Below are positions 26,145 through 43,762 of a stretch of 45,093 bases of DNA, in pieces (the stretch's first letter is position 1; the number at the start of each line of letters is the position of its first letter). The stretch spans positions 1-45,093 of the forward strand of contig DYFC01000029.1 in the NCBI GenBank assembly GCA_020725385.1, read 5' to 3'. The stretch is from Nitrospira japonica (GTDB lineage: Bacteria; Nitrospirota; Thermodesulfovibrionia; Thermodesulfovibrionales; SM23-35). The notes under the pieces were generated by a model. That model saw only the letters and a program-made list of their open reading frames with translations. It was not told the origin of the DNA and ran no database searches. The position numbers were made by a program, and so were the translations under genes.

Positions 26145-26522
26145 CTAACTTTCACAACATAACGCTTCAAGCGTTCGGCATTTGATGCCGGATTTTTGAT
26201 TTTTTACCTTTAAAAATTCTTTTAGTCTAATAATGTCTTCTTTTACAGATTCTTCAGAAATTCTCTCTAATGCTGAAAGTAAAAGAAATCTTCTGAAGAA
26301 ATCAGAATCATCGATCTTGTAATGAACCCATTTGCCCTGTTTTCTATCCTTAATAAGCCCTGCTTCTTTAAGAATAGATAGATGAAAGGAAACCTTTGGT
26401 TGAATCATATTTAAGGCTGTAACTAAATCACAAACGCATAACTCACCATTCTCAAGTAATTTAAGAATTTTCAGACGGGTTACATCCGATAAGGCTTTAA
26501 ATATATTAAGTATCTCATCCAC
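26145..26522 (-). CDS. arsR: ArsR/SmtB family repressor
   Basis: 'FKALSD..RLKIL', 'ELCVCDL', 'VSFHL'; C-terminal 'C..CC'. Confidence 0.92.
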
Positions 26523-26524
26523 AA

Positions 26525-26764
26525 TTAAACCTCTTCTTTGATTAAAGATTTTACTTTTTCAAGAGAAGGTAAAGGTTTTCCGGAATGTTTCAGTTTCCCG
26601 TTAACCATTAATCCCGGAGTTGATTTTGTGTGTTTCATAATTTCAAAAATATCCGTGACTTTTGTGATTGTTGCATCAATACCGAGTTCTGAAACAGCTT
26701 TTTTTGCAAGTTCTTCCATAGCATGACAATTCGGACAACCAGGACCTAATACTTTAATTTCCAT
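26525..26764 (-). CDS. Small redox-active disulfide (thioredoxin-like) protein
   Basis: 'IKVLGPGCPNC', 'TPGLMVNG'; GGAGG RBS. Confidence 0.9.
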   Translation of the reverse strand: MEIKVLGPGCPNCHAMEELAKKAVSELGIDATITKVTDIFEIMKHTKSTPGLMVNGKLKHSGKPLPSLEKVKSLIKEEV

Positions 26765-26936
26765 AAGTACCTCCTAAAAGAAAGACAAATTTTTGAATTA
26801 AAAAATTCCCATAAAATTATTTTGATAAATTAATATTAAAGATATTCTTAATTTGCATTCTTTTTTAGACTATTTATTTAAATATTATTAACAATTGTAG
26901 TTATAATATATGGATGAATTTATATAGTATTGTTTT

Positions 26937-26966
26937 AATATATAAATTAATTTTTATATATGTCAA
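26937..26966 (-). promoter_or_regulatory. Sigma70 promoter of the ars operon with a palindromic operator in the spacer
   Basis: TTGACA-18 nt-TATATT; TATATAAA-ttaatt-TTTATATA at 26939-26960. Confidence 0.55.
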
Positions 26967-27023
26967 GGTCTAAATTAAGAACCGTTGACACAAATCGCAA
27001 CTGCTTAAATTTTAATATTATCG

Positions 27024-27605
27024 CTATTGTTTTACGCTATTGATTTTTCGAGGTGTGATTATCTTTTTATTCATGATAGATTCGAGTTTCGGAAGTAGTG
27101 AATGTTTATCCGCAAGAAGTTTCAGACTTTTTAAATCAGCCTGTTTCATTAATGAAATAATATCTATTTGATCCTGCATACTGAATGGTAGTAGTTTTAG
27201 AAGGATAAGAAATTCGGGAGTGGCAACTTTCACAATTTTGCCGAATATTTTAGTAGGGACAGCTTTCTCAACCGCTTCTAACGCTAGTTCAAATCCTTTT
27301 GAGCTGATAACATCGACCTCCATTTGACCTTCCATAAAAGAAAGTTTTTCCTGTATGGTTGGTTTCCTGCTTCCCTTTTGTACAGCAACTTTTTTATGAA
27401 GTCGTGTTTCTATTAGTGAAGATATATCTTTCCATGTTATTTCAGGAGAAATTACAACAATAAGATCAATGTCTTTAGTAGTTCGAGGTTCAACCCATGC
27501 TGAGAGAGCAAGTCCTCCAATTAATGCATAATCCTTTATTAAGTTTTCTTTTTTTAGTTCGTTAAAAAAAGCAATGGTTTTTTTAAAGGATTGAATGATT
27601 GACAT
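27024..27605 (-). CDS. Pol-beta superfamily nucleotidyltransferase (AbiEii/MenT-like)
   Basis: 'YALIGGLAL', 'PRTTKDIDL', 'ATPEFLILLKL', 'DQIDI'. Confidence 0.75.
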   Translation of the reverse strand: MSIIQSFKKTIAFFNELKKENLIKDYALIGGLALSAWVEPRTTKDIDLIVVISPEITWKDISSLIETRLHKKVAVQKGSRKPTIQEKLSFMEGQMEVDVISSKGFELALEAVEKAVPTKIFGKIVKVATPEFLILLKLLPFSMQDQIDIISLMKQADLKSLKLLADKHSLLPKLESIMNKKIITPRKINSVKQ

Positions 27606-27715
27606 TATTTTTTCTTTATTGCTTTTTTAACAGACTGTTTGAGGATTAGAGAAAGCTCAAGCAGTTCCAGAGCTATTTCAATATTTTTTCCGCTCGGTTT
27701 TTTAATCTTTTTCAT
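27605..27715 (-). CDS. Unannotated 36-aa basic helical peptide, putative partner of the nucleotidyltransferase
   Basis: MKKIKKPSGKNIEIALELLELSLILKQSVKKAIKKK; TAATG stop/start overlap with the NTase. Confidence 0.55.
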   Translation of the reverse strand: MKKIKKPSGKNIEIALELLELSLILKQSVKKAIKKK

Positions 27716-27793
27716 GATTTTATAAAATCGAATAAGAAATTCCTTTTTATCTTCAGGCGTTCTACCAGCTTTTTATGTATATATTGTAACAAT

Positions 27794-28837
27794 TCATGGT
27801 GTAATTTTCACAAGACCCCGTTTTCCAACATCTCCATCAATAACATATTTAAAATTATTAAAATGTTCTATTACCCGTAAATTAGTGAGAAGATGCTCTG
27901 TGATACAGGAAGTTGTAAAAAAAGATTCTTTTGAAGATAAAGAAAGATATAATACAATCTGGTCAGCAATATGTGGATCAAGCGAAGCTTCTGTCAAATA
28001 ATATTCAATAAAATCTTTTGCAGTCTCCTCTCCAACAACCTCGGCTCTTTTACCTTTTTCTCCAATGGAGGAAAAACCTGCAAATGAATTTTCAAACTCT
28101 GAAAAAAGAAAGACAAATGTTCCCTGTCCGGGAGTTGATAGGCTAATTGTATCTATATTATTCGATAAGGTTTGGTCGAAGCTATTTAGATTTTCAACTA
28201 ATTTTTTTACTAAAGCATTTTTTTGTCTTTCACCAATAGATAAAGGAAGATTTCCAACCCCTGAAATACCGGATAATCTTATAATCTTACCTCTTTCCAT
28301 AATATTCAATGGCATTATTTTCTGAGCAGGATATATTGTTGCTCTTATTTTCCCTCCACCTTTTGGATAAAATCCGTAATTTTCAATTTTAACTTCTATG
28401 GTCAATCCTATTATGTCTAAAAATCTTGCGAACACATTTTTTATATAATCGAAACAAGGACTGTATGGGACATGTGTACCGCCTTTAAGAATAATAGAAG
28501 TCTTTGTGTTTGTAAAAACAAGTGCAGGGATAAGTGTTTGTAGAACCAGAGATGTTGAGCCGGCAGTTCCTACATCAAAATAATAATCACCGGATTTTAT
28601 TTCACCGGGTAAAAAGATAAGTTCTGTTGAACCTATAAAATCACCTTTTACTTCTGCTCCGGAAATGAGTTGCGCTGCCTTTACACAGGTTAAATGCTGT
28701 GGCATTAAACCTGGTTTTTTTCTGTTTTTTCTGATATTGAATATTTTGAAAGGTTTCCGAGTTAAACACGAAAGACTTAAGGCTGTTCTTAATATCTGTC
28801 CTCCGCCTTCTCTATAACTACCATCTATTTCAATCAT
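27794..28837 (-). CDS. rtcA: RNA 3'-terminal phosphate cyclase
   Basis: '[16 protein letters not shown]', 'GFYPKGGG', 'DPHIADQ'. Confidence 0.95.
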
Positions 28838-28846
28838 AAAATAGGG

Positions 28847-29194
28847 TTAAACAATTATATTTACAAATAGTCCCTTTTTAAAGTCTCCTTCCGTCACACT
28901 ATCAATAACTTTCAGCCAATTATAGAAACGGAACCGGGAGTAATATCCTGTGATATTTATATCTTCTAAAGAAGGGTGAAATATAAATTCAAACCCTTCT
29001 TCTAAGTTATGCTTGTTATTTGTTTCATTAAGATTATCGGCTTCTAATTTCCGGTGACATGGAAAAAGTTGAGGTAGGTTTGAAACAACAGGAATGGCAT
29101 TCATTTTATTTCTGCCTTTTTCTTTCTGAAAAGGTGAAATAGAATTTAATCCGGTAACAATACTGTTTCCGGAATTTGTCTTATCGATATTCAT
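28847..29194 (-). CDS. Hypothetical protein
   Basis: ORF fills the gap in a co-oriented run; start uncertain. Confidence 0.45.
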   Translation of the reverse strand: MNIDKTNSGNSIVTGLNSISPFQKEKGRNKMNAIPVVSNLPQLFPCHRKLEADNLNETNNKHNLEEGFEFIFHPSLEDINITGYYSRFRFYNWLKVIDSVTEGDFKKGLFVNIIV

Positions 29195-29235
29195 AAATAC
29201 TCATGTCACAGTTCTATTTTGACTATTATACCAGT

Positions 29236-29721
29236 TTATTCAACATATTCTTTTATTATTTGTCCGGGACATACAAATGAAACTCCATGTCTTGCGCTAA
29301 ACATTATAGCTTCTATAATAGGCTGATTTACTTTCTTTTCAGACTGCCATTTGACAATAAAATTCGCTCCCGGGCCGCCTCTTTTATCATATTCTTTAAG
29401 ATAAATATACGTTGACTCCAGAGGCTTTAGAACAAATGGTTTTTTAATATAACTATCTACTAATTTGCCTGCTGTATCATAGTAATCAGCTTTTAATATA
29501 GTTATGCTATTTTTAGGATCTGTATTTCTGAGACTGAGCATTGTTGCAAGTTCAAGCCTTACAGCTTTTGGTGCAGAATATATGTTCGAATAAACAGAAA
29601 CATATACAGTGTTTCCGGAAGAAAGCTCTATATCTGTTTCAGAAAAAGATTGCGAATGTGCTATAAGAACAACAAAAACAGATAGCAACAAAATAACCTT
29701 TGATAAATTCTTAAAATACAT
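29236..29721 (-). CDS. DUF3124 family exported protein
   Basis: Signal peptide; 'VYVSVYSNIY', 'LSLRNTD', 'GGPGANFIVKW'. Confidence 0.85.
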   Translation of the reverse strand: MYFKNLSKVILLLSVFVVLIAHSQSFSETDIELSSGNTVYVSVYSNIYSAPKAVRLELATMLSLRNTDPKNSITILKADYYDTAGKLVDSYIKKPFVLKPLESTYIYLKEYDKRGGPGANFIVKWQSEKKVNQPIIEAIMFSARHGVSFVCPGQIIKEYVE

Positions 29722-29736
29722 TACTTCAACCTCCTT

Positions 29737-30435
29737 TTATATATGATTTATGTTATCATCTTTTTCCTTTTCTTTGAAACTCTTTTCAAGATATTCTTTT
29801 GCAAGATCCTTACCTCCAAGCCCGAAAGCCAGTGAAAGTGCAAAAATAATTCCTCCGAAGATTACTGCAAAAGCTATAATAATTGTCTCTCTACCTATGC
29901 CAAGCTGTTCAAGAGCCATTGTAAATGAAAGAATAATTATTGTTATTTTAACAAGCTTACCAATAAGTCCTGATATTTTTATGCCGGCATTCACACTGGC
30001 AATAAGAACAGCCCTGCCTACAAAATTACTAAGAAAATATCCTATGATTAATATGATTGTTGCAACAAAAATATTCGGGAGATAAAGAATAAATTTTTCA
30101 AGTATTCTGTCAACTGCCGGGATATTTAAAAGGTAAAGGGATAGTATTGAAAAACAAATCAAAATTGTCCAGAATATAAATTTAGAAAGAATAGAAGATA
30201 CAGGACTTTTAAACCCCCATTTCTGTAATAGAACCGCTACCCCTGAACGTTCAAGAGATTTATCTACTTTAAATATATTAAGAATCTTCAATGAAATCAC
30301 TTTTAATATTATGGCTAACAATAGCCCTATAATAAAAACAACAAATGAAGTCAATATCTCCGGTAGAAAAAGTAGCATACGGTCATAAAACTTTTGTAGA
30401 GGCTCGTCAATTATTTTTTCAAGAAAATTGCTCAT
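29737..30435 (-). CDS. TM-helix repeat / MscS-associated (CmpX-like) membrane protein
   Basis: 'YLPNIFVA', 'ALEQLGI', 'ALSLAFGLGGKDLA'. Confidence 0.75.
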   Translation of the reverse strand: MSNFLEKIIDEPLQKFYDRMLLFLPEILTSFVVFIIGLLLAIILKVISLKILNIFKVDKSLERSGVAVLLQKWGFKSPVSSILSKFIFWTILICFSILSLYLLNIPAVDRILEKFILYLPNIFVATIILIIGYFLSNFVGRAVLIASVNAGIKISGLIGKLVKITIIILSFTMALEQLGIGRETIIIAFAVIFGGIIFALSLAFGLGGKDLAKEYLEKSFKEKEKDDNINHI

Positions 30436-30454
30436 CGGTTACCTCCTCTTTTAA

Positions 30455-31696
30455 TTACCATTCATTTATAAGAAAGTCTTTTAATTTTTCATAACATATG
30501 CAAAGCCTTTCAATTTTTTGCTCTACTTCTTCTGAATCATTATTCTCTGTTTCGATAACAAAAGACGCAACTCTACCGAGATAAAGAGGAGTTAGTGATT
30601 TGAGAAGATGTTCCCGTGGTATTATTTTTTTATGGTATGCAGAAGCAAAGCTATATATTATTTCCACCCAGATAGAGTCGGACAAACTAAAAGCATTCTT
30701 TTCCGAAGCTTCAAGTTCTTGCAAAACATTTATAACTTCCCTGCTTAGAAATTCTTTCCAGATATTGCTTAATTCCCTGACTCCAAGCTTGTAATTCGCT
30801 ATCATTCTATCGAGATTAACATTTACAGGTTCAAGCCCGACTGTATAATCAAAGCCAAATGTCGGTACTTTTACAGAACCTTTGATATTTTTCCATAAAT
30901 CGTAATAGGTTTCCATTAAATCAAAAGTTGAACCAACAACCTGAAAAAGCATGGAGCTAAGGTCAGAACCCGGGTCTTTTGGGTCATGAATTTTTGCTCC
31001 AAGAAATGATTGACATATTTTGAAGTTATTGGCAATCGCAGTAGTTGTCATCCATATATCAATACCATATCTTGCCACTTCGGTTTCCCAAACATCTTTT
31101 GTAAGATAAAAACTGGCAAGTTTGCCGGAAAAACCGAAATCTCCGCCAATTGGCTGACGTATCTGCTTACCATAAAGAGCTCTTGTTAAAGGATAAATTA
31201 TACTGTTAGTGATTGTTCCGTCATATTTGTGTCTGTGATAAAGCGGGGATACATAATCAAAATCTCTTTCTATAACAGGTTTAATCAAAAGCTCTACCCA
31301 TTCGGGTGTAATACTTCTGAGATCAGAATCAACAACAGCGCAGGCCTTTGCATTTAATATTTCTGCTATCTCAAATATCATTCTAAATGCACTGCCTTTC
31401 CCCGGAATTCCGTGATATGGAGTTGCTATCTTGAAAAAAGGTGTTGTGCGATGGTGTATCAATATAGACTGTAAATCTTCAATTACAGTATTTTGAACTA
31501 TATCCATTGTACCGTCTGTTGAACCCCCATCTGAATTAATAAGAACAGACTTTTTTTCAGGAAAATATTTGGCGAGCCCTGCCTGGACAGCCTTCACAAC
31601 ATGGCCTATTGTGCGGGAATTATTATAGCTCGGTATTCCTACAATAATATCCGCATTCTTAATTTTATTTATATCATCCCTCAATCTTTCCTGCAT
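30455..31696 (-). CDS. GT-A glycosyltransferase, probable single-step glucosylglycerate synthase (Ggs-like)
   Basis: 'VGIPSYNN', 'DGGSTDG', 'GKGSA', 'DSD', 'RQPIGGDF', 'YGIDIW'; gpgS/gpgP context. Confidence 0.65.
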   Translation of the reverse strand: MQERLRDDINKIKNADIIVGIPSYNNSRTIGHVVKAVQAGLAKYFPEKKSVLINSDGGSTDGTMDIVQNTVIEDLQSILIHHRTTPFFKIATPYHGIPGKGSAFRMIFEIAEILNAKACAVVDSDLRSITPEWVELLIKPVIERDFDYVSPLYHRHKYDGTITNSIIYPLTRALYGKQIRQPIGGDFGFSGKLASFYLTKDVWETEVARYGIDIWMTTTAIANNFKICQSFLGAKIHDPKDPGSDLSSMLFQVVGSTFDLMETYYDLWKNIKGSVKVPTFGFDYTVGLEPVNVNLDRMIANYKLGVRELSNIWKEFLSREVINVLQELEASEKNAFSLSDSIWVEIIYSFASAYHKKIIPREHLLKSLTPLYLGRVASFVIETENNDSEEVEQKIERLCICYEKLKDFLINEW

Positions 31697-31717
31697 TTTA
31701 TTTTCATTTATCCCGGG

Positions 31718-32761
31718 TTACTTCTTCCATTCTTTTTCCTCTCTTAAATAAACTGTTCTGTGAGGGAAAGGTATTTCTATTCCTTCTTCTTTAAATCTTT
31801 TAAATATTCTTTTTCTAAGCTCATGCTGTACAGGATATTGATCCGTGAATTCTCTAACCTGACAGACAAGTGTAAAGTCAAGAGAACTATCACCAAATCC
31901 CGGCACGAACCTGACAGAAGGCCCGGGCTCTGGAAGCAACCCTGTTATTTCTCCAATTGCTTTATTTGCTTCCTCTAAAAGTATTTTTTCGACTTTTTCA
32001 GGGTCCGATGAATAACTAACTCCTACAGGTATGAAAATAGACATTCTTCTTTCCGGCAGATAATAATTTGTAACTATACTCTGGGCAAGACTTTTATTAG
32101 GAATAACAACCATATTGTTCGGAAGCATTCTAATTCTCGTTGTCCGCCATGTTATATCTTCTACATAACCTTCCTGTCCGGTTTCGAGTTTCACAAAATC
32201 ACCTACACGGATAGATTTTTCTACAAGAATATGAATCCCGGCAAAAAGATTTGCTAATGTATCCTGTAGCGCAAGAGCAACCGCAAGTCCCCCAACACCG
32301 AGAGCTGTGAGTAAGGGAGCAATAGAAATACCGAGAGAACTTAGAATAATTAAGAAACCAATAATTATAATTGTACCTTTTAATATTCCATATGCAAGTC
32401 CTGTTGTCGGGATTGGCAGGTTTGATTCACGCACATAAATCTTGAATATTTTCCCTGATATATTTGCTGTCGCAAAAGTTATTGAAAGTATAATAACTAC
32501 ATGGATTATCCTTTTTAGATAAAAAATATACTTGGCAGGAAGTTCTGATAATTCAATTCCAAGATATAAGCCTAAGGCAACACACCATAATAAAGATGGA
32601 GATTTTAAAGAACTTATAATAATATCATCAACTTTAGTATCGGTTTTTTCTGCCCATATATGGATATATTTTAATAGAATACTACGAATAAAGATTGAAA
32701 TAAAAATTATAAAAACAGAAATTCCTACAGGAATTAATATTCTATTATAACTAAAATCCAT
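31718..32761 (-). CDS. mscS: Small-conductance mechanosensitive channel
   Basis: 'GVGGLAVALALQDTLANLFAG', 'GDFV', 'ITWRTT', 'GIEIPFP'. Confidence 0.92.
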   Translation of the reverse strand: MDFSYNRILIPVGISVFIIFISIFIRSILLKYIHIWAEKTDTKVDDIIISSLKSPSLLWCVALGLYLGIELSELPAKYIFYLKRIIHVVIILSITFATANISGKIFKIYVRESNLPIPTTGLAYGILKGTIIIIGFLIILSSLGISIAPLLTALGVGGLAVALALQDTLANLFAGIHILVEKSIRVGDFVKLETGQEGYVEDITWRTTRIRMLPNNMVVIPNKSLAQSIVTNYYLPERRMSIFIPVGVSYSSDPEKVEKILLEEANKAIGEITGLLPEPGPSVRFVPGFGDSSLDFTLVCQVREFTDQYPVQHELRKRIFKRFKEEGIEIPFPHRTVYLREEKEWKK

Positions 32762-32802
32762 AAAACCTCCTGTTTAATCAATATCGGGAATCAATAGTTA
32801 AA

Positions 32803-34011
32803 TTAACTGTTATCTTCTTCCACAGCTTCTTTAATTCTATTTAATATATCAGGAACTGCGGATGTTACTCTATCCCAGCTTGCGATAAGAGGAACACCCA
32901 GGGGGTCTTCATTAATTATTTCAGCAGCTTTCTTTATACCATTTGTAAATGTTTCCACCGAAAGACTTTCTTCATGCCTGTCAAAGAAAAGACCATTAAC
33001 AGCAGCATCATCCTGATACCTTTTGAGCATATCCTGAGCTGTTCTAACATAGGTTGCAACAAGAGTTTTAAAAAACCCATCGGAAAATACAACTCCTTCA
33101 GATGCAAGAGTGCGAAAAAGGGTTTTACAAATATCCACGCACATTTTATGAAGTCCTTTTGAAGCATCTTCAGCAGAAAGTTCCTGATGTTTATGTTCGT
33201 AATTCTCGGCAATATCTACCTGACAGACTCTTCTTGCAGATGTATTCCTGTAAACTTCAGCCAAAACACCAATTTCGAGTCCCCAGTCTCCCGGAATTCT
33301 ATTAACCCTTGCGAGATCAACATCCATAGAGAATTCCCCGGCCAACGGATACCTGAAACTATCAAAAAATACAAGTATCGGAAGATACCCGAGAATTTTC
33401 TGTAAGGACCTAATTAAAGGAGTCACCAGAAGTCTTGTGACTCTTCCATGCAGTCTATCGGTAACCCTGCTGTAAAAACCCTTACAAAAATCATAGTCAA
33501 GACTCGGATTTACAACAGGGTAACAAAGACGCGCCAGCAGTTCCCTGTTGTATGTCACTATGTCGCAATCATGCAAAGCGATACATCTAATATATTGCTC
33601 GGATAGAATATATCCATAAGCCATCCATGCAGACCTGCCCTTTCCTTGTTCACCTATAGGCAGTTCTGCTTCCTGAATTGCATTATATATTGCACTTATC
33701 CTCGGCCCATTGTTCCAGATTATTCTTGTTTTTTGGGGTAGAACTGAAAAAAACTGTTTTGCATGTCTGAATTCATCCTCAGACGCAGGACCGAGTGTTA
33801 CAACTATCTCCTTTAAATATTTTATTTCTCTTATTTCCCTTATAATTCCTTTTAAAGCATCCCCTGCAAGTTCGCTGAAAAGAGATGGAAGAACCAGTGC
33901 AATAGGCCTTTCAGCCGAATACCATGAAATCTCGGATTCTATTTTCTCAAGATTAGTTCTTCCCAATCTATGAAATGTAGCAACAATACCTGTTTGATAA
34001 AAATCTGCCAT
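32803..34011 (-). CDS. gpgS: Glucosyl-3-phosphoglycerate synthase
   Basis: 'MADFYQ.G..ATFH', 'GKGRSAW', 'HDCD', 'GRVTRL', 'YPLAGE', 'DWGLEIG', 'YEHKHQ'. Confidence 0.85.
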   Translation of the reverse strand: MADFYQTGIVATFHRLGRTNLEKIESEISWYSAERPIALVLPSLFSELAGDALKGIIREIREIKYLKEIVVTLGPASEDEFRHAKQFFSVLPQKTRIIWNNGPRISAIYNAIQEAELPIGEQGKGRSAWMAYGYILSEQYIRCIALHDCDIVTYNRELLARLCYPVVNPSLDYDFCKGFYSRVTDRLHGRVTRLLVTPLIRSLQKILGYLPILVFFDSFRYPLAGEFSMDVDLARVNRIPGDWGLEIGVLAEVYRNTSARRVCQVDIAENYEHKHQELSAEDASKGLHKMCVDICKTLFRTLASEGVVFSDGFFKTLVATYVRTAQDMLKRYQDDAAVNGLFFDRHEESLSVETFTNGIKKAAEIINEDPLGVPLIASWDRVTSAVPDILNRIKEAVEEDNS

Positions 34012-34049
34012 AAATGCCTCCCTTCTAAATTATTCGTATTGTCAAAAAT

Positions 34050-34086
34050 AAAAAACCGCTATCCAAAACTATCTTTCAGATAGCGG
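34050..34086 (-). terminator. Leader intrinsic terminator (riboswitch expression platform)
   Basis: CCGCUAUC...GAUAGCGG followed by UUUUUU, ~40 nt before the gpgS ATG. Confidence 0.85.
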
Positions 34087-34140
34087 CCCGACTATCTTTT
34101 TCAACCCTTCAGAAAAATATTTTTCTGAACCCTGTTGAAA
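34078..34140 (-). ncRNA. Probable Na+-I (DUF1646 motif) riboswitch aptamer
   Basis: UUUCAAC-AGGG-[UUCAGAAAAA/UUUUUCUGAA]-GG-GUUGAAA, then AGAUAG-UCGGGCCG-CUAUCU hairpin overlapping the terminator; match to the consensus is from memory. Confidence 0.7.
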
Positions 34141-34392
34141 CATTAGAGCAAAATATCTAATACTAAGTCATCTATTTAAATCAAATATAAAACTCAAAAT
34201 TCTTGAATTCATTATATTATAAAATCAAACTTCAATTTTCTACTCTTGTTTAATTGAATTAAAAATCTCTCAAGTTTTAAAATCAACTTCGATTAAATAT
34301 AAGAGACAGTATATGAGAAGGAGAATTTCGTTAGAATTTTTTATATTATACCATAACCTACTTTTGTTTGTAGAAAATGACATAATAAATAT

Positions 34393-35739
34393 ATGAAAAA
34401 CATTAATGAAATATTTTATACAGCAATAAAAGCTGTGGATCCGTATATTTCCATGAAATCATATACCGGCAAAATAGCCTCTATTTATAAAAATGGAAAA
34501 TTCAGAGAACTGATCGTCATTTGCTTCGGTAAAGCATCATATAGCATGTTTCTGGCTATAATTGAAGATCTCGGCAATCTAATAAATAAGTGTATTGTCA
34601 TAACCAAATATGGCCATTCAGGGGTAAGAGAAAAAGAGATTTCCGGATTAATGAAACCGGGAACTTTTATTTTGTATGAAGCAGGCCACCCTGTACCTGA
34701 TGAAAATGGTTTGGAAGGCACGGAAAAAATAATTGAACTTCTTAAAAATGCCGACAAAAGTACCCTTGTTGTTTGTGCTATTTCAGGAGGAGGTTCGGCA
34801 CTGCTTGTAAGCCCATATAACGGAATATCTTTGAAAGAGAAACAAGCTATTACAGAGTTGCTCTTAAAATCCGGTGCCGAGATTTACGAATTAAATGCTG
34901 TAAGAAAGCATATATCAAAAGTAAAAGGCGGGCGACTTGCAGAGATTGCATATCCGGCTAAAATATTATCTTTTATACTTTCGGATGTTATTGGCGATAG
35001 GCTCGATGTCATTGCTTCAGGTCCAACATCACCGGATGAAACAACTTTTAACGATGCCATGCACATTTTGAAAAAATATAACCTTATTAATAAAGTTCCA
35101 GGAAATGTACTTAAAGTTTTAAGTGAAGGTGCAAAAGGTCTTATACCTGAAACTCCAAAAGAAAGAAATAAAATTTTCAGCAATGTCGAAAACATAATAA
35201 TTGGCAGCAATAAGATAGCTATTGAAGCAGCAAAACAAAAGGCAGAAAAATTAGGTTACAAAACCAAAATAATAACCGATGAGATCAAAGGGGAAGCAAG
35301 AGAAGCGGGAAAGTGGCTTGCTTTAAAAATAAAAGAATATGCAAGGCCGGGGAAAAGCATGGAGATTGACAAATATTCAAAAACAGGCAGGGAATCCCTT
35401 TGCTTTATTTCAGGTGGAGAAACTACAGTAACTGTCAAAGGTAATGGTAAAGGGGGAAGAAATATGGAGCTTGCCCTTGCTTTTGCTATTGAAATTGAAA
35501 ATTTAGATGGAATTACTTTTTTATCGGCAGGAACCGATGGCACGGATGGCCCTACCGATGCAGCAGGCGCTACTGTAAATGGTAACACTGTAAAAAAGGC
35601 AAAGATACTGGGATTGAATCCTGTGGAATATCTGAATAATAATGACTCATACAATTTTTTCAAAAAAACAGGCGATCTTTTCATAACAGGTCCAACAGGA
35701 ACAAATGTTATGGATATCCAGATAATAATAGTAGAATGA
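34393..35739 (+). CDS. Glycerate 2-kinase (MOFRL/GckA family)
   Basis: 'FGKAS', 'AGHPVPD', 'ISGGGSAL', 'GGETTV', 'GTDGTDG', 'TGTNVMD'. Confidence 0.92.
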   Translation: MKNINEIFYTAIKAVDPYISMKSYTGKIASIYKNGKFRELIVICFGKASYSMFLAIIEDLGNLINKCIVITKYGHSGVREKEISGLMKPGTFILYEAGHPVPDENGLEGTEKIIELLKNADKSTLVVCAISGGGSALLVSPYNGISLKEKQAITELLLKSGAEIYELNAVRKHISKVKGGRLAEIAYPAKILSFILSDVIGDRLDVIASGPTSPDETTFNDAMHILKKYNLINKVPGNVLKVLSEGAKGLIPETPKERNKIFSNVENIIIGSNKIAIEAAKQKAEKLGYKTKIITDEIKGEAREAGKWLALKIKEYARPGKSMEIDKYSKTGRESLCFISGGETTVTVKGNGKGGRNMELALAFAIEIENLDGITFLSAGTDGTDGPTDAAGATVNGNTVKKAKILGLNPVEYLNNNDSYNFFKKTGDLFITGPTGTNVMDIQIIIVE

Positions 35740-36554
35740 AAAGGATAATAATCTTCACAGACCTTGACGGAACTTTACTTGATTCAGATACCTATTCTTT
35801 TGAATCTGCATTACCTGCGCTTGATTTTATAAAACAAAAAAACATACCCTTGATTATTTGCTCAAGCAAAACAAGAACCGAGATCGAATTCTACAGAAGA
35901 AAACTCGATAATCAACATCCTTTTATCACTGAAAATGGTGGCGGCATATTTATCCCGGAAAATTATTTTGAATTTGATATTTCAAAAATTGGTTTTAAAC
36001 CTGAAAAAACAAGAAATTATCTGCTTATAAGACTTGGTGCAAAATATACTGATCTTAGAAAAAGCATAATTGAATTAAGAAAAAAAGGTCTAAGAATAAA
36101 AGGCTTTGGTGATATGACTTTTAAAGAAATTGCAGAAATAACCGGGTTAAGTATAGAAGAAGCGAAAATGGCAAAAAAAAGGGACTTCGATGAACCTTTT
36201 ATTTTTTATGGAGATGAAAAAGAGAAAGAAAATCTTTTGAATAATATAAAAAAAATGAATCTTAATATAACAATGGGAAGGTTCTACCATCTCATGGGCA
36301 ATAGTGATAAAGGAAAAGCGGTTTCAATTCTTATAAAATTATACAAGAAAAATTTTTTGGACATAAGTACCATAGCCTTAGGAGATAGCCCAAATGATTT
36401 ACCCATGCTCGAAAAAGTTGATTATCCTGTTGTTGTTAGAAAAACTGATGGCAAATATGATTCAAACATAAAACTACAACATATCATAAAAGCAGATGGA
36501 ATAGGACCCAAAGGATGGAATAATTCTGTCTTGAAAATTCTCAAGTCTTTATAA
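35736..36554 (+). CDS. gpgP: HAD-IIB glucosyl/mannosyl-3-phosphoglycerate phosphatase
   Basis: 'FTDLDGTLL', 'SSKT', 'ENGG', 'DKGKA', 'GDSPND'. Confidence 0.8.
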   Translation: MKRIIIFTDLDGTLLDSDTYSFESALPALDFIKQKNIPLIICSSKTRTEIEFYRRKLDNQHPFITENGGGIFIPENYFEFDISKIGFKPEKTRNYLLIRLGAKYTDLRKSIIELRKKGLRIKGFGDMTFKEIAEITGLSIEEAKMAKKRDFDEPFIFYGDEKEKENLLNNIKKMNLNITMGRFYHLMGNSDKGKAVSILIKLYKKNFLDISTIALGDSPNDLPMLEKVDYPVVVRKTDGKYDSNIKLQHIIKADGIGPKGWNNSVLKILKSL

Positions 36555-36787: not shown

Positions 36788-39700
36788 ATGCGGGAGGGGA
36801 GCAAGCTTTATTTGAAGAAAAGATATTTACATCCGGTATTAAATACAAACAAAAAATTATTTTTCATTGTTTTGCTTCTATATATATGGTCATTCAGTTC
36901 AATTGCAATAGCTGATCCATACCCGCCATACTGGTCTGGAGGGACAGGCGCATCTATCCATTTCCAGCCGGTATCATGGCCAAATGAGCCTTCCAGCCCT
37001 TCTGATTGCGGTCATACATGTGGTGACTGGAAACCATATACCCGTTTCCAAAGAGAGATGGCTGACCCAAGAATTCAGGACCCTTCAAATGGCGGAACAT
37101 CTCCACAAAACTATGTTAATGTAGCGTCATCATGCATTGATAAAACTCTGCCAAGTATTTATTACTATCTTCACAAAGATCCAGCTGATCCAACAAAAGA
37201 CGTGATTATGTTTCGCTGGCGAGTTGAGCAGATAGCTAATAATTATGCTACAGGACCTTCTGCTGGAAATTATGGTGCAACAGACCCGTGGAGTTCTGCT
37301 CTATGGACAGTTCTTTTTGACGTGGATGGAGATGGATACAGGGATCTTGCTGCGCATCTTGATGGTTCTTCTGGTGCTCCTTCAACATCAATAGACCGTA
37401 TCTTTGGTATCTGGGGAAATATTCCCACACAATCTCTTGATTACTTATCCGATCCTAATATTCATTTAATAGCCCACAATCCGACAGGTTTTGTAGGAAC
37501 GAGCAAATTACTAAACTTCCATGATTCATTATCTCCTGATGAAAGCTGGCCTTCTGGCTCTTCTACAAATTCATGGGATTATGGTACAACTCGCTCAAAG
37601 CTGATAAGTACCAATTCATGTAATGAATATTTTGTTGACTATCAGATACCTGTTGCAATGCTTGATGCAACAGGGTTAGGCGGTCCTCAAATAACAAGAG
37701 ATACGCCGATCTCTATGCTTTTCTGCACTGCAAACAGTCTTAACAACCCTTTTCAAAAAGACTGTGCAATAAATAAAAAATGGGTAGGTGATGCATCAAG
37801 ACCTGCTCCTTTTGGGGATTACTTATCATTCAATGAAACTGCTCCGTATCAGCAACCTATTGTTTCGAGTATAACTGCGACCGCGCCAACAGGATGCCCG
37901 GGGAATTACAGCTTCACTGCAAAAGTGCAGGATACTATTGCTATTGTGAATGGAGTTGCTATAGCAACAGTCAAAGCAGTTGATTTCTACTATTATTATG
38001 ATACTAATGGAAATGGCATTGCAGATGATGGAAATACATGGACATTCGCAGCTTCTGGCACATTGAAACCAGGGTCTTTAAATATATGGACAGCTACATG
38101 GAATGCGACCAGTTTAGCAAAAGGAAAATATCTTATAGGAGTTCAAGCAATTGATTCAGAATATATTGATAACAATAGTAATAATATTTATGATGCAGGA
38201 GATATTTCATTACTCGATGACGGCATGACCCCGACTGAAAATCATAACCGTACATTTTCTTATCTAACCAAATCAGAAGTTGATGCTCTCACTCCCCCAG
38301 CAAATGAAACATGGTTTGCAAACCCAGATATAACAGGCACTCAAATGGCAGTAATCGGAGTTGCTATTAATAATTGCGGGCTCGCGCCAACTATGACAAA
38401 AACCGCAAGCTCAAATAGTGTTATAGCAGGGGATACAGTTGACTTTACCTTAACTATTACAAACCTTCTTAATACCACACTTACTGTAAATGAAATTGTA
38501 GATGTCTTGCCTCCAGGGTTTAATTATGTTAATGGTTCGACTTCAGGTGATTTCGGGACAGCTAATCCATCAATAAACAGTCAGACTTTAACATGGACAT
38601 TAAGTTCTCCAGTAAATATAGATGCAGGAAACAGCGCCTCACTAACTTTTACGGCAAACTCTACTTCAGTTTCAGGAAATTACACAAACAGTGCTTATTC
38701 TGAGACAAGTTTTGGCACAATTGTAAGCAACCCATTCACTATTGGTGTTGATTCAGCACGTTTATCTCTTACCAAGACTCCGGATAAATATCTTGTTGAT
38801 CCCGGTGGAACAATTACATATAGTCTTGCATACTCTAACGATTCCTCGGTTACTATTACAAATGCGAGCATTTCAGATACACTGCCTGCCAATGTAAATT
38901 GTGCAAGCTATTCAGTAAATGGTGGGACTCCGCAATCTTGTTCAGGGCAGAATGTCACAATTCCATTAGGTGATATAGCTGGTGGTGAAAGTGGCAACGT
39001 TACTCTAAATGTAACTGTAACCAGTAATTACAACAGCCCTTCATTATTGAATACTGCCACAATTTCAGGCACAGCGCCTGATGGAAGCACAGTAAGTAAA
39101 ACAGCAACAAGCACTATTGCTGTTAATGTCCCAGTGCCTGCATTTACATTGGTAAAAACAGGACCTGTTCAGGTTGCTCCATCAGGGTCGGTAACATGGA
39201 CTATTACATATAAAAATTATGGAACTGGTTCTGCAAGTGGAGTAACAATTACTGATACCCTTCCTGGCGGATTTACTTACAGCAGTTGCACAGGTGGTAG
39301 CTCTTGCAGCGGAAGTGGAAACAATGTTTCATGGACAATCGGAACAGTAGCAGCAGGAGCATCTGGTTCGGTCACTGTTACAGCGACCGTTGCATCAGCT
39401 CCATTTACTTATGACAATCCAGCAGTAAATAACGCTACTATAACATGGACAGGCAATAGTACTGGAGTATCTGCACAGGCAACAGTTGGAATAACAGGAC
39501 AGGCTTGTAGCGGTGTTTATTATTTTCATAATGGTTTTACTGCCACAACAACACCTCCAACATCCGGAACCGATACAACAACTACTATAAATACATCCGG
39601 AATTTCAATATTGTTTACAGCACCTCCTGCAACGAGCATTATGGTATTGGCAGGTAAAACACTTTCTGTTGATTTTTATATTGATGCAAGAGCAGGCAAT

Positions 39701-42700
39701 ATAACTCTGGCTACTGAACTTCAGGATTATAACCCTAATACGTCAACTTATACAGTTATAGTCAGCGATTCCCGGACACTTTCAAATAATTTCCAGTGGT
39801 TTAACTATACAGTAACAATTCCGGGTGGCACATCGAATCTTGCTGTCGGACATCAGTTGCGCTGGAAATTTACAGGCACATGGACAGGAAATAAAAGTAT
39901 TACATTCTATTACGACGGGCCTCATGATTCACGTTCTTCTTTCTGTGTTACAACTTCACCAGCTAATCTGACAATTTCCAAAATTGTGGATCAGCCTAAC
40001 ATTCCAAGTGGTTCAACACCTACACTTAATTATTTAATAACTTATGCCAATACCGGCGGAACAAGCGCCAATAATGTAAATCTTATTGATACATTGCCAT
40101 CAAATGTTAATTGCTATCGATATTCATCAAACTGCACAAACTGGTCAGACCCTAACACATGTTCGAGCTGGACTTCTTGCAGTGGTAATTCTGTTACATT
40201 GATTTCAAATGGTACAATTTCAGCAGGTGCAACAGGGAATATCTTATTACAGGCAAATGTTCAGTCAGGTGCTTCAGGCACTTTAACTAATACTGCTACA
40301 ATAAGCGGCACGGGGGTTGAAACTAAATCTGCAACAGCAAACACTATAGTCGGCTCTCTTTCAGGTGGTGGTTCTCCAAGCCTTGCTGTTAGTCTTTCAA
40401 CCGATAAAACTACTGCCAATCCCGGTGATACTGTAACTTACACTATCACTGTAGTAAATGTTGGAAGCGGAGATGCAACAGGAGTGGTTGTCTCAGATGC
40501 TTATCCTATACAAGACATAAATGGTAACACTGTCACAGGGTTTTATACTTATGGAACATGCAGCAACAGTTGTACAAATAGCAGTGGCACATTATCGTGG
40601 AATGTAGGAACACTCTCTCCAGGTCAGTCAGTTACTTTTACATATACAATGGTAGTGGGGAATTCTGGCCTACCAGCAGGCGTAACAGTTATTCCTGATG
40701 CTGCTCAGGCTTATGCAGGAAATATTACAGAAGGCTCTCCAGGTAGTTCTACAAATCCAGCTCAAAGCAATCAGGTTAATGTAACACTTAATGGCAATCC
40801 TATATTATCGCTTGTAAAGAATGCGAATCCGTCTAATGATCTAAAACCTGGTGATACAATTACATACACGCTTACAGTTACAAATACAGGTTCAAGTACA
40901 GCAGAAAATGTTGTTGTAACAGATCCAATTCCCACTCATACGAGTTTTAAAGAAATAACCCAAGGCAGCGGATCATTCGATTCAGTGAATAATAGAGTTG
41001 TTTTTAATGTTGGAACATTAACTTCAGGAAGTTCAACGACTCTAATTTTCAGTGTTACTGTTAATGAATTACCTTCAGGAAGTACAACCATTTCAAATAT
41101 TGCAACAGCTACTGCTTCTAATACATCATCTCGCACTGCAAACGCAAGTGCTTTAGCGAGTGCAAGTCCAGCTTTTACTTTAAGCAAAACAGGACCTGAA
41201 CAGGTAGCCTATCCAGCTGCAAAACTCATTGCGAATGTCAATAACAATACTGTGATATTCGTGAGTGACTCAACTCAGTTTACTGAAGGACAATTTATAT
41301 ATTTGAATAGTACAATACTTAAAATTATATCAATCTCTGGGAATGCTATTACTGTTGACATTCCTGTTAGTGCGTCAACAGGTGATGATATTATCCCAGG
41401 AATTACTTATAACATTACATATCAAAATACAGGCAATGCAACCGCAACAGGCGTTACCCTGACCGATACGCTACCAGCTGGATCAATCTTTGTTATGGCA
41501 ACTGACGGAGGCTTGGAAAATAGTGGTGTTGTAACATGGAATCTCGGTAATATCGAACCTGGCATAGGTGGAACAGTTCAGGTTGTGATTATTCCTGGTA
41601 ATACCGGAACTATAATTGACAATGCAAGCATAGATTGCACAAACTGCACTGAACCTGTAAATGCTTCAGTATCAACATTTGTAGGTGGCTTGCGCATATC
41701 AAAGAGAACGACTACTCCAACAACTCCTGCACCCGGAACAGTTACATACATTATAGAAGTTGAAAATACACTTGGTTCAGACGCAAATGATGTAACTATA
41801 ACCGACATTCTGCCTCCGGGATTTACATTTGCATCAACAACATCAATAATTATTGACGGGAACACAGTCTCACCAACCACAAAACCAACAGTTGGTGATA
41901 ATTCTTTAACATGGGCATCTTTTTCAATTCCTGCTGGCAAAAAACTTGTGCTGACTTTTACAGCAGATGTGGCTGAAACTGTTGGACCAGCAACATATCA
42001 GAATGATTCAGGAGCAACTTCAAGCAATACAAGCGTGACTCCTTTTGATCCGTTACTTACAACAGAAGAAGATGTGACAGTGCTTGCTGAAGGCACAGGA
42101 ATTATTGAAGGTTATGTATTCCGGGATAATGACAATAATGGTTTATTTGACCCATCAGTTGATACTCCTTTGCCCGGAGTTAATGTGAATATAACAGATA
42201 GTACTTCTACGCTTTATATTATTGCAACAGATAGTTCCGGATATTTCAAAAGGGTAGTGGCTTCAGGGGAAGCAAATGTTGATATTGAAGATTCAGATAT
42301 TCCTCCGGGATTAGAACTGGGTAACAGCTTTACAGACCCAGAGATAATTACAGTTCCTAACCAAAGTATTGCAACTAAAAATACAGGCTTTGTACCTTCA
42401 AGCATATCAGCCGATCTTTCAATAGTAAAAACTGACGGAGCAGGTGTAACGATTGCAGTACCTGGTGAGGACATAACTTACACAATAACTGTGATGAATA
42501 ATGGACCTGCAAATGTAACAGGAGCGACAGTAAGCGACACATTCCCTGGGATATTGAGCAACATAAGCTGGACGTGTTCAGCATCAGCGGGTTCAAGCTG
42601 TACAGGAACAGGCAATGGTAATATCAGTGATACAGTAAACATATTATCAGGCGGTACATTGACATACATAGTAACAGCAACAGTGAGCGCATCAGCGACA

Positions 42701-43762
42701 GGTTCATTGAGCAATACAGCAACAGTAACAGCACCTGAAGGAACTCCTGATACAGATACAAAAAACAACAGTTCAACTGATACTGACACGCTTGCGCCAA
42801 GAGCCGATCTTTCAATAACAAAGTCAGATAGTATTGATCCTGTAATAGCAGGGAATAATCTGGCTTATACGATAACAGTAAGCAATGCTGGGCCTTCTGA
42901 TGCAGTTAATGTTTTAGTAACAGAAACGCTGCCTTTGGGTGTGACATTAGTTTCAACGGTTGGATGTTCTGAAGACCCGAATGGGGTTCCAACATGTAGT
43001 CTTGGAACAATTACTGCTGGCAATTCCAAACAATACACTGTGAATGTAACAGTTAACTCTGGTACAACCGGAACACTCACAAACAGTGTGAGCGTTACTT
43101 CTGATACATTCGATACTAATACAAACAACAACTCTATATCAGAGAATACAACTGTTAATGCGCCTAATGTTTTTGATCCACCTTCAGGCACTAAGACAGT
43201 TAATGATGCAGGTTATCCTGTACTTGAATGGAGAATGGTTTGGATAAATAATGGGACTGCACCTGCTGAACGCCAGAGGATTATTGACACTATCCCAGCA
43301 AATACTACTTATATAAACGGTAGTCTTAATTGTATTGAAAGGGGAGCTTCAGTAAGGATAAGTTGCTATTATGATTCTATAGGCAAACGTATCATATGGG
43401 AAGGAAATATTGCTCCGGATCCAGGTGCTACAAATGAAACAGATGCATTAAATGAAGTTGTAATTATATTCAGAACAACTGTAGCTGCTGGTATATTAAA
43501 TGTATCTAACCAAGGGTTTGCTTATTGGGATGAAAACGGAGATGGTTCTGTCTCTGATGATCTTAGCAGGGGTCAAATACCTGTCAGCACAGATGATCCT
43601 GCAACAACAAATTCAGGAGATCCTACAGTCTGGAATTATGAAGAACCAATTCCAATCCCGGCTATGAATACACAGGGAGCTTTGATACTTATCATATTTA
43701 TTTTAATCGGAACTGTTTTATATTTAATAATACAAAAAAATGATAATCACAGTAAATTTTAA
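36788..43762 (+). CDS. Large surface protein/adhesin with ~12 DUF11 repeats, SdrD B-like domain and IPTL-CTERM-like anchor
   Basis: Signal peptide; repeated 'K....PG..TYTITVTNTG...A..V.VTD.LP'; 'GYVFRDNDNNG'; C-terminal 'IPAMN'+TM+K. Confidence 0.85.
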   Translation: MREGSKLYLKKRYLHPVLNTNKKLFFIVLLLYIWSFSSIAIADPYPPYWSGGTGASIHFQPVSWPNEPSSPSDCGHTCGDWKPYTRFQREMADPRIQDPSNGGTSPQNYVNVASSCIDKTLPSIYYYLHKDPADPTKDVIMFRWRVEQIANNYATGPSAGNYGATDPWSSALWTVLFDVDGDGYRDLAAHLDGSSGAPSTSIDRIFGIWGNIPTQSLDYLSDPNIHLIAHNPTGFVGTSKLLNFHDSLSPDESWPSGSSTNSWDYGTTRSKLISTNSCNEYFVDYQIPVAMLDATGLGGPQITRDTPISMLFCTANSLNNPFQKDCAINKKWVGDASRPAPFGDYLSFNETAPYQQPIVSSITATAPTGCPGNYSFTAKVQDTIAIVNGVAIATVKAVDFYYYYDTNGNGIADDGNTWTFAASGTLKPGSLNIWTATWNATSLAKGKYLIGVQAIDSEYIDNNSNNIYDAGDISLLDDGMTPTENHNRTFSYLTKSEVDALTPPANETWFANPDITGTQMAVIGVAINNCGLAPTMTKTASSNSVIAGDTVDFTLTITNLLNTTLTVNEIVDVLPPGFNYVNGSTSGDFGTANPSINSQTLTWTLSSPVNIDAGNSASLTFTANSTSVSGNYTNSAYSETSFGTIVSNPFTIGVDSARLSLTKTPDKYLVDPGGTITYSLAYSNDSSVTITNASISDTLPANVNCASYSVNGGTPQSCSGQNVTIPLGDIAGGESGNVTLNVTVTSNYNSPSLLNTATISGTAPDGSTVSKTATSTIAVNVPVPAFTLVKTGPVQVAPSGSVTWTITYKNYGTGSASGVTITDTLPGGFTYSSCTGGSSCSGSGNNVSWTIGTVAAGASGSVTVTATVASAPFTYDNPAVNNATITWTGNSTGVSAQATVGITGQACSGVYYFHNGFTATTTPPTSGTDTTTTINTSGISILFTAPPATSIMVLAGKTLSVDFYIDARAGNITLATELQDYNPNTSTYTVIVSDSRTLSNNFQWFNYTVTIPGGTSNLAVGHQLRWKFTGTWTGNKSITFYYDGPHDSRSSFCVTTSPANLTISKIVDQPNIPSGSTPTLNYLITYANTGGTSANNVNLIDTLPSNVNCYRYSSNCTNWSDPNTCSSWTSCSGNSVTLISNGTISAGATGNILLQANVQSGASGTLTNTATISGTGVETKSATANTIVGSLSGGGSPSLAVSLSTDKTTANPGDTVTYTITVVNVGSGDATGVVVSDAYPIQDINGNTVTGFYTYGTCSNSCTNSSGTLSWNVGTLSPGQSVTFTYTMVVGNSGLPAGVTVIPDAAQAYAGNITEGSPGSSTNPAQSNQVNVTLNGNPILSLVKNANPSNDLKPGDTITYTLTVTNTGSSTAENVVVTDPIPTHTSFKEITQGSGSFDSVNNRVVFNVGTLTSGSSTTLIFSVTVNELPSGSTTISNIATATASNTSSRTANASALASASPAFTLSKTGPEQVAYPAAKLIANVNNNTVIFVSDSTQFTEGQFIYLNSTILKIISISGNAITVDIPVSASTGDDIIPGITYNITYQNTGNATATGVTLTDTLPAGSIFVMATDGGLENSGVVTWNLGNIEPGIGGTVQVVIIPGNTGTIIDNASIDCTNCTEPVNASVSTFVGGLRISKRTTTPTTPAPGTVTYIIEVENTLGSDANDVTITDILPPGFTFASTTSIIIDGNTVSPTTKPTVGDNSLTWASFSIPAGKKLVLTFTADVAETVGPATYQNDSGATSSNTSVTPFDPLLTTEEDVTVLAEGTGIIEGYVFRDNDNNGLFDPSVDTPLPGVNVNITDSTSTLYIIATDSSGYFKRVVASGEANVDIEDSDIPPGLELGNSFTDPEIITVPNQSIATKNTGFVPSSISADLSIVKTDGAGVTIAVPGEDITYTITVMNNGPANVTGATVSDTFPGILSNISWTCSASAGSSCTGTGNGNISDTVNILSGGTLTYIVTATVSASATGSLSNTATVTAPEGTPDTDTKNNSSTDTDTLAPRADLSITKSDSIDPVIAGNNLAYTITVSNAGPSDAVNVLVTETLPLGVTLVSTVGCSEDPNGVPTCSLGTITAGNSKQYTVNVTVNSGTTGTLTNSVSVTSDTFDTNTNNNSISENTTVNAPNVFDPPSGTKTVNDAGYPVLEWRMVWINNGTAPAERQRIIDTIPANTTYINGSLNCIERGASVRISCYYDSIGKRIIWEGNIAPDPGATNETDALNEVVIIFRTTVAAGILNVSNQGFAYWDENGDGSVSDDLSRGQIPVSTDDPATTNSGDPTVWNYEEPIPIPAMNTQGALILIIFILIGTVLYLIIQKNDNHSKF
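42409..42817 (+). repeat. 16-bp exact direct repeat AGCCGATCTTTCAATA bounding one DUF11 module
   Basis: Copies at 42409-42424 and 42802-42817, 393 nt (131 codons) apart. Confidence 0.75.

Follow-up and report, generated by a model that had tools for sequence, protein, structure and literature searches.

This study identifies the leader RNA of a gpgS operon in a Nitrospirota genome as a member of the nhaA-I riboswitch family, the family that comprises the Li+-I and Na+-II riboswitches. The leader lies within the window, by which we mean the whole 45,093-nucleotide stretch of DNA analysed here, and the same type of RNA recurs in front of gpgS operons in a second phylum. Its aptamer shares nucleotides with an intrinsic terminator, so that the two structures are mutually exclusive. 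From these features we consider it likely that the leader is built as a transcriptional ON switch and that Na+ is its likeliest trigger.

The 381-nt intergenic gap between the starts of the divergent glycerate-kinase gene (34393) and gpgS (34011) contains a structured leader RNA, all of whose structures lie on the minus strand between 34142 and 34044. The aptamer itself (34132..34078, minus strand) consists of a GGGU core, the P1 hairpin, an AGG segment, a linker and the hairpin P2 with its CGGGCC loop. In RNAfold predictions, upper P1 pairs UUCAGAAAA (34129..34121) with UUUUCUGAA (34116..34108), and it is flanked by a G-rich internal loop formed by GGG(U) at 34132..34129 and AGG at 34108..34106. 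The P2 hairpin (34097..34078), seen in both the Rfam alignment and the fold, has AGAUAGU and GCUAUCU as its arms, with U34091 and G34084 as the loop-closing pair. When the aptamer is folded alone, the minimum free energy (MFE) structure contains P1 and P2. The MFE folds also show a lower extension of P1, in which UUUCAAC (34140..34134) pairs with GUUGAAA (34105..34099). This lower stem is present in the sequence but absent from the Rfam model, and we have not adopted it as a part of the aptamer. A comparable stem with at least four pairs is seen in only 5 of 17 members from the window's family, and in L208, the closest diverged orthologous leader, it carries an A-to-C change that is uncompensated.

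A candidate promoter region was located at 34142..34184 on the minus strand by inspection and a consensus scan, which offer three options: TTGATT-N16-TATTAG (34184..34157), ATGACT-N18-TCTAAT (34171..34142), and the best match of the consensus scan, farther upstream at 34374..34345. TCTAAT is also the point at which conservation of the leader with L208 begins. If TCTAAT (34147..34142) is the -10 box, the transcript start may fall inside the lower P1 stem.

The family assignment rests on Infernal searches, conserved nucleotides and covariation. The aptamer matches RF03057 (nhaA-I) with 46.4 bits against a gathering score of 37, covering model positions 1-55 of 55; this is the only match of the whole window to Rfam 15, and RF03057 has exactly one match in the whole assembly (2.46 Mb, 96.6% complete). 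With R1, our custom covariance model, the window aptamer scores 72.3 bits. The conserved GGGU, AGG and GUCGGGCCGC nucleotides are all present in the cmscan alignment, and they are invariant in the 17 family copies except for U or C before CGGG. Compensatory changes occur at 6 of 15 pairs among the 17 family sequences. In a larger alignment of 93 matches, which was fitted to the model and includes 9 antisense partial rows in P1, 12 of 16 scored pairs show changes on both sides, one of the 16 being a C-C pair that was wrongly included; none of 500 shuffles reached this level and slid controls were far lower. The leader thus has what defines nhaA-I RNAs, namely a score above the cut-off over the whole model, P1 and P2 with covariation, and the conserved nucleotides.

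The first-pass annotation had placed the leader in another class, the Na+-I (DUF1646) riboswitches. Our searches do not support this: RF03071, the covariance model of that class, has no match at E<=10 in 33900-34400 (501 nt) and none across the whole 2.46-Mb assembly, whereas RF03057 matches the same bases above its cut-off. The earlier assignment is understandable because the nhaA-I and DUF1646 consensus models are similar and differ in the lower P1 and in the P2 loop (PMC9646797), and the two classes share a two-hairpin layout. Na+-I RNAs resemble the window leader in function as well, as cation-triggered ON switches (White et al. 2022, Nat Chem Biol, PMC9337991) that are sometimes found ahead of osmoprotectant genes such as dapB, ablA and eam (PMC9337991). 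Nevertheless, they are described by a separate model that finds nothing in the window, and we regard a Na+-I riboswitch at this site as having a negligible probability.

The expression platform of the leader is an intrinsic terminator, a hairpin of 16 pairs at 34089..34053 followed by a U-run to 34044 on the minus strand, which was detected by both the fold and the terminator scan. Its 5' arm is made of the P2 loop and the P2 3' arm, and in the MFE structure of the full leader the terminator is present in place of P2. The 111-nt leader has an MFE of -38.5 kcal/mol (z = -5.7), and none of 200 shuffles was equally stable. The scan of 33900-34450 returned one site against 0.1 expected, and this site is the strongest terminator-like structure on either strand within 26500-34450. 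It lies about 30 nt upstream of the gpgS ribosome-binding site, GAAGGGAGG (34024..34016, minus strand). Since no gene ends there, the terminator is best read as an attenuator, and because the 3' half of P2 doubles as the 5' arm of a strong intrinsic terminator, the logic is that of an ON switch. The folds and the terminator scan therefore bear out what the first-pass annotation had read from the sequence, an aptamer overlapping an intrinsic terminator with ON-switch logic; of the structures it had described, upper P1, the G-rich loop, P2 and the terminator are retained, while the lower stem is not.

The mechanism that we propose is as follows. In the absence of ligand, the terminator (34089..34053 with its U-run), as the more stable structure, would form and transcription would halt ahead of gpgS. 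Binding of a monovalent cation to the aptamer, involving the GGGU/AGG core and the CGGGCC loop of P2, would hold P2 in place. With P2 held, the 5' arm of the terminator would be unavailable and RNA polymerase would continue into the operon. The genes switched in this way would be gpgS, mscS, a gene for a Ggs-like GT2 glycosyltransferase, a gene for a mechanosensitive-channel-like membrane protein and the DUF3124 gene, and probably also the 115-aa ORF and rtcA.

All seven of these genes lie on the minus strand behind the leader. The first encodes a gpgS-type glucosyl-3-phosphoglycerate synthase of 402 aa (32803..34011), which matches NCBIfam NF040724 (GpgS_Meth) end to end with an E value of 3e-110 and 369 bits, a score below the equivalog cut-off of 700. 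It is followed after 41 nt by an MscS-type mechanosensitive channel of 347 aa (31718..32761; Pfam PF00924, PF21082 and PF21088) and after a further 21 nt by a GT2 glycosyltransferase of 413 aa (30455..31696; PF00535). The GT2 protein has thousands of relatives with mostly generic names, one of which, 73% identical, is named 'glucosylglycerate synthase' in its source; from this name we tentatively suggest that the protein is a single-step, Ggs-like glucosylglycerate synthase of the pathway described in PMC3736172. Next come a 232-aa membrane protein that carries the TM helix conserved in mechanosensitive channels (29737..30435; PF05552, NF033912; gap 19 nt) and a 161-aa DUF3124 protein (29236..29721; PF11322, E 2e-46; gap 15 nt). 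The 115-aa ORF (28847..29194; gap 41 nt) and the RNA 3'-phosphate cyclase gene rtcA (27794..28837; TIGR03399; gap 9 nt) are probably the distal genes of the switch-controlled operon, and no strong minus-strand terminator is found between the operon core and these two genes. The position of rtcA 9 nt behind the 115-aa ORF is also seen in L208, and rtcA is an odd companion for osmoadaptation genes. A PDB sequence search gave no match for GpgS or for the GT2 protein.

On the other side of the leader, the divergent plus-strand genes encode a glycerate 2-kinase (34393..35739) and beside it an MPGP-family phosphatase (35736..36554), which is probably the GpgP of the two-step route. Both lie outside the switch. 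A single ORF of 2324 aa (36788-43762, plus strand) is found downstream of this pair. The NF040724 and Pfam matches confirm the earlier suggestion that the switch stands ahead of a compatible-solute and MscS operon. To describe the arrangement as a protein-free circuit, as the first-pass annotation did, was an overstatement because the phosphatase gene of the pathway (35736..36554) belongs to the divergent operon and is outside the switch.

Within the window's own family, RF03057 is found in 15 of 57 genomes with 17 copies in total. It was detected in none of 16 genomes from other families of the order and in a single one of 150 additional genomes from the phylum. Sixteen family copies have their downstream sequence complete, and in 15 of these a clear terminator overlaps P2. 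The genes behind these copies are varied. For example, the copy in G002 precedes genes for trehalose-phosphate synthase and phosphatase, the copy in G067 precedes genes for TreT and trehalose-phosphate synthase, and those in G023, G043 and G056 precede genes for NhaD-like CitMHS transporters. In G016 the aptamer is followed by DUF3124 and then by a Na+/H+ exchanger with TrkA domains. Other copies precede CBS, GntR and response-regulator genes (G001 and G024) or SPFH proteins (G071 and G064), and several genes of unknown function follow the remaining ones. Two observations from these loci are recorded here in their own right. The CLC chloride-channel gene that ends the trehalose operon of G002 (L008 1109-2453, minus strand) is split into two overlapping ORFs, which may be a frameshift or an assembly error; and a 906-aa protein encoded behind the G015 copy (L011 2235-4955, plus strand) has a Pfam Anthrax_toxA domain match with an E value of 2e-22. 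DUF3124, which is found in the window (29236-29721, minus strand) and as the first gene after the same type of riboswitch in G016 (L012 7509-8000, minus strand), before the Na+/H+ exchanger, may be a sodium-stress protein.

The gpgS cluster itself is widespread in related lineages, mostly without the switch. Species-representative genomes contain at least 533 relatives of GpgS, and the best 80 loci, whose titles are mostly Nitrospirota or Thermodesulfovibrionales, are 76-84% identical. By tblastn, these best 80 loci have a divergent glyK in 49 cases, gpgP in 42, mscS in 39, GT2 in 19 and the TM protein, after GT2, in 17, while DUF3124 is found in none. A regular expression for the core motif matched upstream of gpgS in none of the 80 loci, one of which has less than 200 nt of upstream sequence, and covariance model R1 likewise found no copy near gpgS in any of them (best 14.8 bits, E 0.38). 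R1 also found none at the 25 other gpgS loci of the window's family, including one locus without its 5' end. gpgS occurs in 24 of the 57 genomes of this family, and the GpgS query had no match in the 5 other genomes of the genus. The switch is therefore absent from all 105 other orthologous gpgS loci surveyed, and because neither the 80 nor the 25 loci carry the element, it appears to have had no ancestral role in gpgS control in this lineage.

The survey of gpgS leaders in relatives suggested by the first-pass annotation thus came out negative at these orthologous loci, although the element is kept in two metagenomic loci, L207 and L208. Both were compared with the window after a metagenome search with a pattern in which the aptamer core was joined to a degenerate GpgS start; four contigs matched this pattern. 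L207 is a near-identical strain with a leader 98.6% identical to that of the window. L208 has diverged, with identities of 96% for GpgS, 86% for MscS, 62% for the 115-aa ORF and 88% for the leader at the nucleotide level, and all seven genes are present in the order seen in the window. In the three-way leader alignment, the stretch that runs from TCTAAT to the end of P2 has a single differing base (1 of 66 nt against L208), and this base is in the lower stem. The upstream flank of L208 is heavily changed and contains a 13-nt indel, and the 3' arm of its terminator is substituted yet retains its pairing. Judged from these alignments, this pattern is the footprint that would be expected of a functional aptamer with its expression platform. 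It also bears on whether the leader has decayed or lacks a regulatory role, acting as a constitutive attenuator or being bound by a protein. The presence of only one copy in the genome would agree with such a reading. However, every position of the model matches, the aptamer region has 1 change in 66 nt against L208 while its flanks diverge, and the terminator pairing has survived substitutions, so we consider it most unlikely that the leader has lost or never had a riboswitch function.

The same association is found again in another phylum, that of a MAG titled 'Deltaproteobacteria bacterium'. Of 151 genomes sampled from this phylum, 14 have the motif, with 20 copies, and in one of its families it occurs in 27 of 55 genomes with 54 copies. 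A terminator follows 16 of the 22 copies in our second set, which consists of the 20 copies of the 151-genome sample and two others, and 39 of the 41 copies analysed from the one family; the 54 copies of that family yield 41 once 5 that the second set already contained, 4 upstream tandem members, 2 that fall at contig ends and 2 that score below the cut-off are set aside. Four of the genomes have the riboswitch in front of gpgS. In G342 it is followed by gpgS (60% identical to the window protein over 402 aa), gpgP and GT2 (69%); in G401 by two small ORFs, gpgS (62%), gpgP and GT2; and in G414 by gpgS (62%) and gpgP. In G249 the order is a 63-aa membrane peptide, GT2 (46%), gpgP and gpgS (59%), with a divergent glycerate kinase. 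The metagenomic loci L206 and L209 are two more riboswitch-led gpgS operons of this other-phylum type. The window GpgS is 76-86% identical to Nitrospirota proteins whose genes have no switch and about 60% identical to the riboswitch-led proteins of the other phylum. Since it is nearer to its switch-less relatives than to its riboswitch-led homologues, the switch and gpgS were probably joined independently in each of the two lineages.

Several further features of the other-phylum loci were noted. Among the 41 copies analysed from the family of G342, the gene most often found behind the riboswitch (12 copies) encodes a Peripla_BP_6 binding protein belonging to an ABC transporter of the branched-chain-amino-acid type (L186, L165, L173, L177, L180, L181, L183, L184, L185, L195, L199 and L200), and such genes are preceded by both U-type and C-type aptamers, as defined below. 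This phylum often has the riboswitch in tandem, with a terminator for each copy, as in L156 (two copies, 156 nt apart), L147/L157, L163, L168, L176 and L187; a published review (PMC9481103) counts Na+-II among the classes not seen in tandem. Several riboswitch copies are immediately followed, in some cases before gpgS, by very small membrane ORFs (63-71 aa) and by a conserved ORF of about 100 aa that starts with MGLFKKKVIKE (L154 1238-1429, minus strand; L148 1564-1767, plus strand; L160 1711-2016, plus strand, and the region of L189).

Which cation the leader senses can be approached through what has been published on this family. According to PMC9646797, nhaA-I RNAs are Li+-I riboswitches that are mostly found ahead of nhaA and probably act at the ribosome-binding site; the KD of their aptamers for Li+ is about 30 mM, and their affinity for Na+ is roughly ten times lower. 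The same paper (White et al. 2022, Sci Rep) describes rare nhaA-I variants with an intrinsic terminator, seen in Deltaproteobacteria only and ahead of genes of unknown function, and names them Na+-II. The one variant tested, from Desulfobulbus propionicus, is activated by Na+ and only weakly by Li+ in single-round transcription, with Na+ binding in the low mM range (PMC9646797). The window leader shares with this type an nhaA-I-type aptamer, a terminator that competes with an aptamer stem and is kept in L208, ON logic and the control of genes other than nhaA. It differs in its host, Nitrospirota as against the published Deltaproteobacteria, a host range that was descriptive and that is exceeded by the 15 of 57 RF03057-bearing genomes in the window's family; in a U as against a C at the probable position 54; and in its recognisable downstream genes, gpgS and mscS, as against the published 'hypothetical' ones. 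Na+ is the presumed ligand of the window leader.

We infer both the ligand and the in vivo direction of the response, and on balance we think it fairly likely that the physiological trigger would be cytoplasmic Na+ under salt stress, a reading that includes a switch that also answers Li+. Na+ is a likely trigger because the regulon includes genes for trehalose synthesis, NhaD-like antiporters and Na+/H+ exchangers. It is further favoured because the terminator architecture matches that of the only variant tested and found to be Na+-responsive, and because the regulon is osmotic and sodium-related in both phyla.

By comparison, a Li+-selective switch of the Li+-I type, through which the operon would be induced by lithium and not by sodium, seems improbable to us. 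As a member of RF03057 (Weinberg et al. 2017, PMC5737381; White et al. 2022), the window aptamer scores above the cut-off of the general nhaA-I model with all conserved nucleotides, and its U before CGGG, at the probable specificity position, is what most Li+-I RNAs have. The preference of Li+-I aptamers for Li+ over Na+ by a factor of about ten would fit this reading too, and the authors of PMC9646797 themselves considered a lithium interpretation for trehalose-6-phosphate synthase, with which nhaA-I RNAs are occasionally associated, besides tandems before cation-transport and osmotic-stress genes. However, members of Li+-I mostly stand before nhaA, with the ribosome-binding site as their probable point of action, whereas the window aptamer has gpgS and not nhaA downstream and acts through a terminator, a platform reported in PMC9646797 only for the Na+-responsive variant group. 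The regulon of glucosylglycerate, trehalose, MscS and Na+/H+ exchangers is osmotic, and lithium is scarce in nature. Moreover, even a weak affinity for Na+ could suffice under osmotic stress; the argument made in PMC9646797 applies to non-stress conditions only.

The nucleotide that closes the P2 loop deserves attention in this context. Position 54 is C in the type specimen but U in the majority of the family, and a C54U mutant showed a response broadened to Li+, Na+ and NH4+ (PMC9646797). The window aptamer has U at its loop-closing position, which is probably the equivalent of that position. This equivalence is suggested because the neighbouring guanines of the loop carry the numbers 52/53 and 56/57 in similarly sized constructs, because the type transcript has its first C at 16, and because the loop-closing U is the only conserved near-loop U that varies to C in our three sets, where a C-G pair closes the loop in 2 of 17, 4 of 22 and 10 of 41 copies. 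Alignment A2 has 67 rows with a U-G closing pair and 14 with C-G. Every gpgS-linked copy that was classified (G000, G342, G401, G414 and G249) is of the U type. A switch that acts like the C54U mutant, as an unselective sensor of monovalent cations or ionic strength (Na+, Li+, NH4+), would fit these U-type loops, including the one in the window; nevertheless, we judge such a broad sensor unlikely. The mapping of the position is tentative, and U- and C-type copies have gene contexts in common, for example the periplasmic binding-protein operons, which is why this nucleotide may not decide specificity here. Within cells, furthermore, a broad sensor would still amount to Na+ sensing, the function that we favour for this leader.

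The switch class, its mechanism and the control of osmoprotectant genes by Na+ riboswitches have already been published, and the leader does not represent a new switch class. What is apparently unreported is the association of a riboswitch with glucosylglycerate and MscS genes. The main texts of PMC9646797 and PMC9337991 contain neither 'glucosylglycerate' nor 'mechanosensitive', their supplementary tables being a place where such associations, or hosts outside Proteobacteria, may be listed, and a literature search at the abstract level returned no paper that ties a riboswitch to glucosylglycerate genes or MscS.

The gpgS-gpgP and ggs glucosylglycerate genes of Persephonella marina and Methanococcoides burtonii were reportedly described by Costa et al. 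in 2006 and 2007 and by Fernandes et al. in 2007. The window resembles these systems in having an M. burtonii-type GpgS, an MPGP-family phosphatase and a probable Ggs at one locus. It differs from them in that the synthases are placed with two mechanosensitive-channel-type genes behind a riboswitch, and its enzymes are predicted from sequence.

Little is understood about how the solute glucosylglycerate is regulated, and these results connect its genes with a defined RNA sensor; the link of the same sensor to MscS-type channels and DUF3124 gives testable functional hints for the unknown genes of the operon. They also add hosts and downstream genes to those known for the Na+-II/Li+-I family, an extension that is well supported and modest, and the U and C variants of the loop-closing position offer a natural pair for working out how these RNAs discriminate Na+ from Li+. 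More tentatively, and at somewhat less than an even chance, we speculate that terminator-type nhaA-I RNAs could serve as master sensors for a salt-stress regulon that is protein-free and widespread outside Proteobacteria, recruited independently in at least two phyla for glucosylglycerate synthesis (gpgS, ggs) and mechanosensitive channels. If this is true, the U-type loop of the classified gpgS-linked copies would be the signature of a working Na+ sensor different from the published C-type specimen, and cytoplasmic Na+ itself would set the production of compatible solutes in these bacteria.
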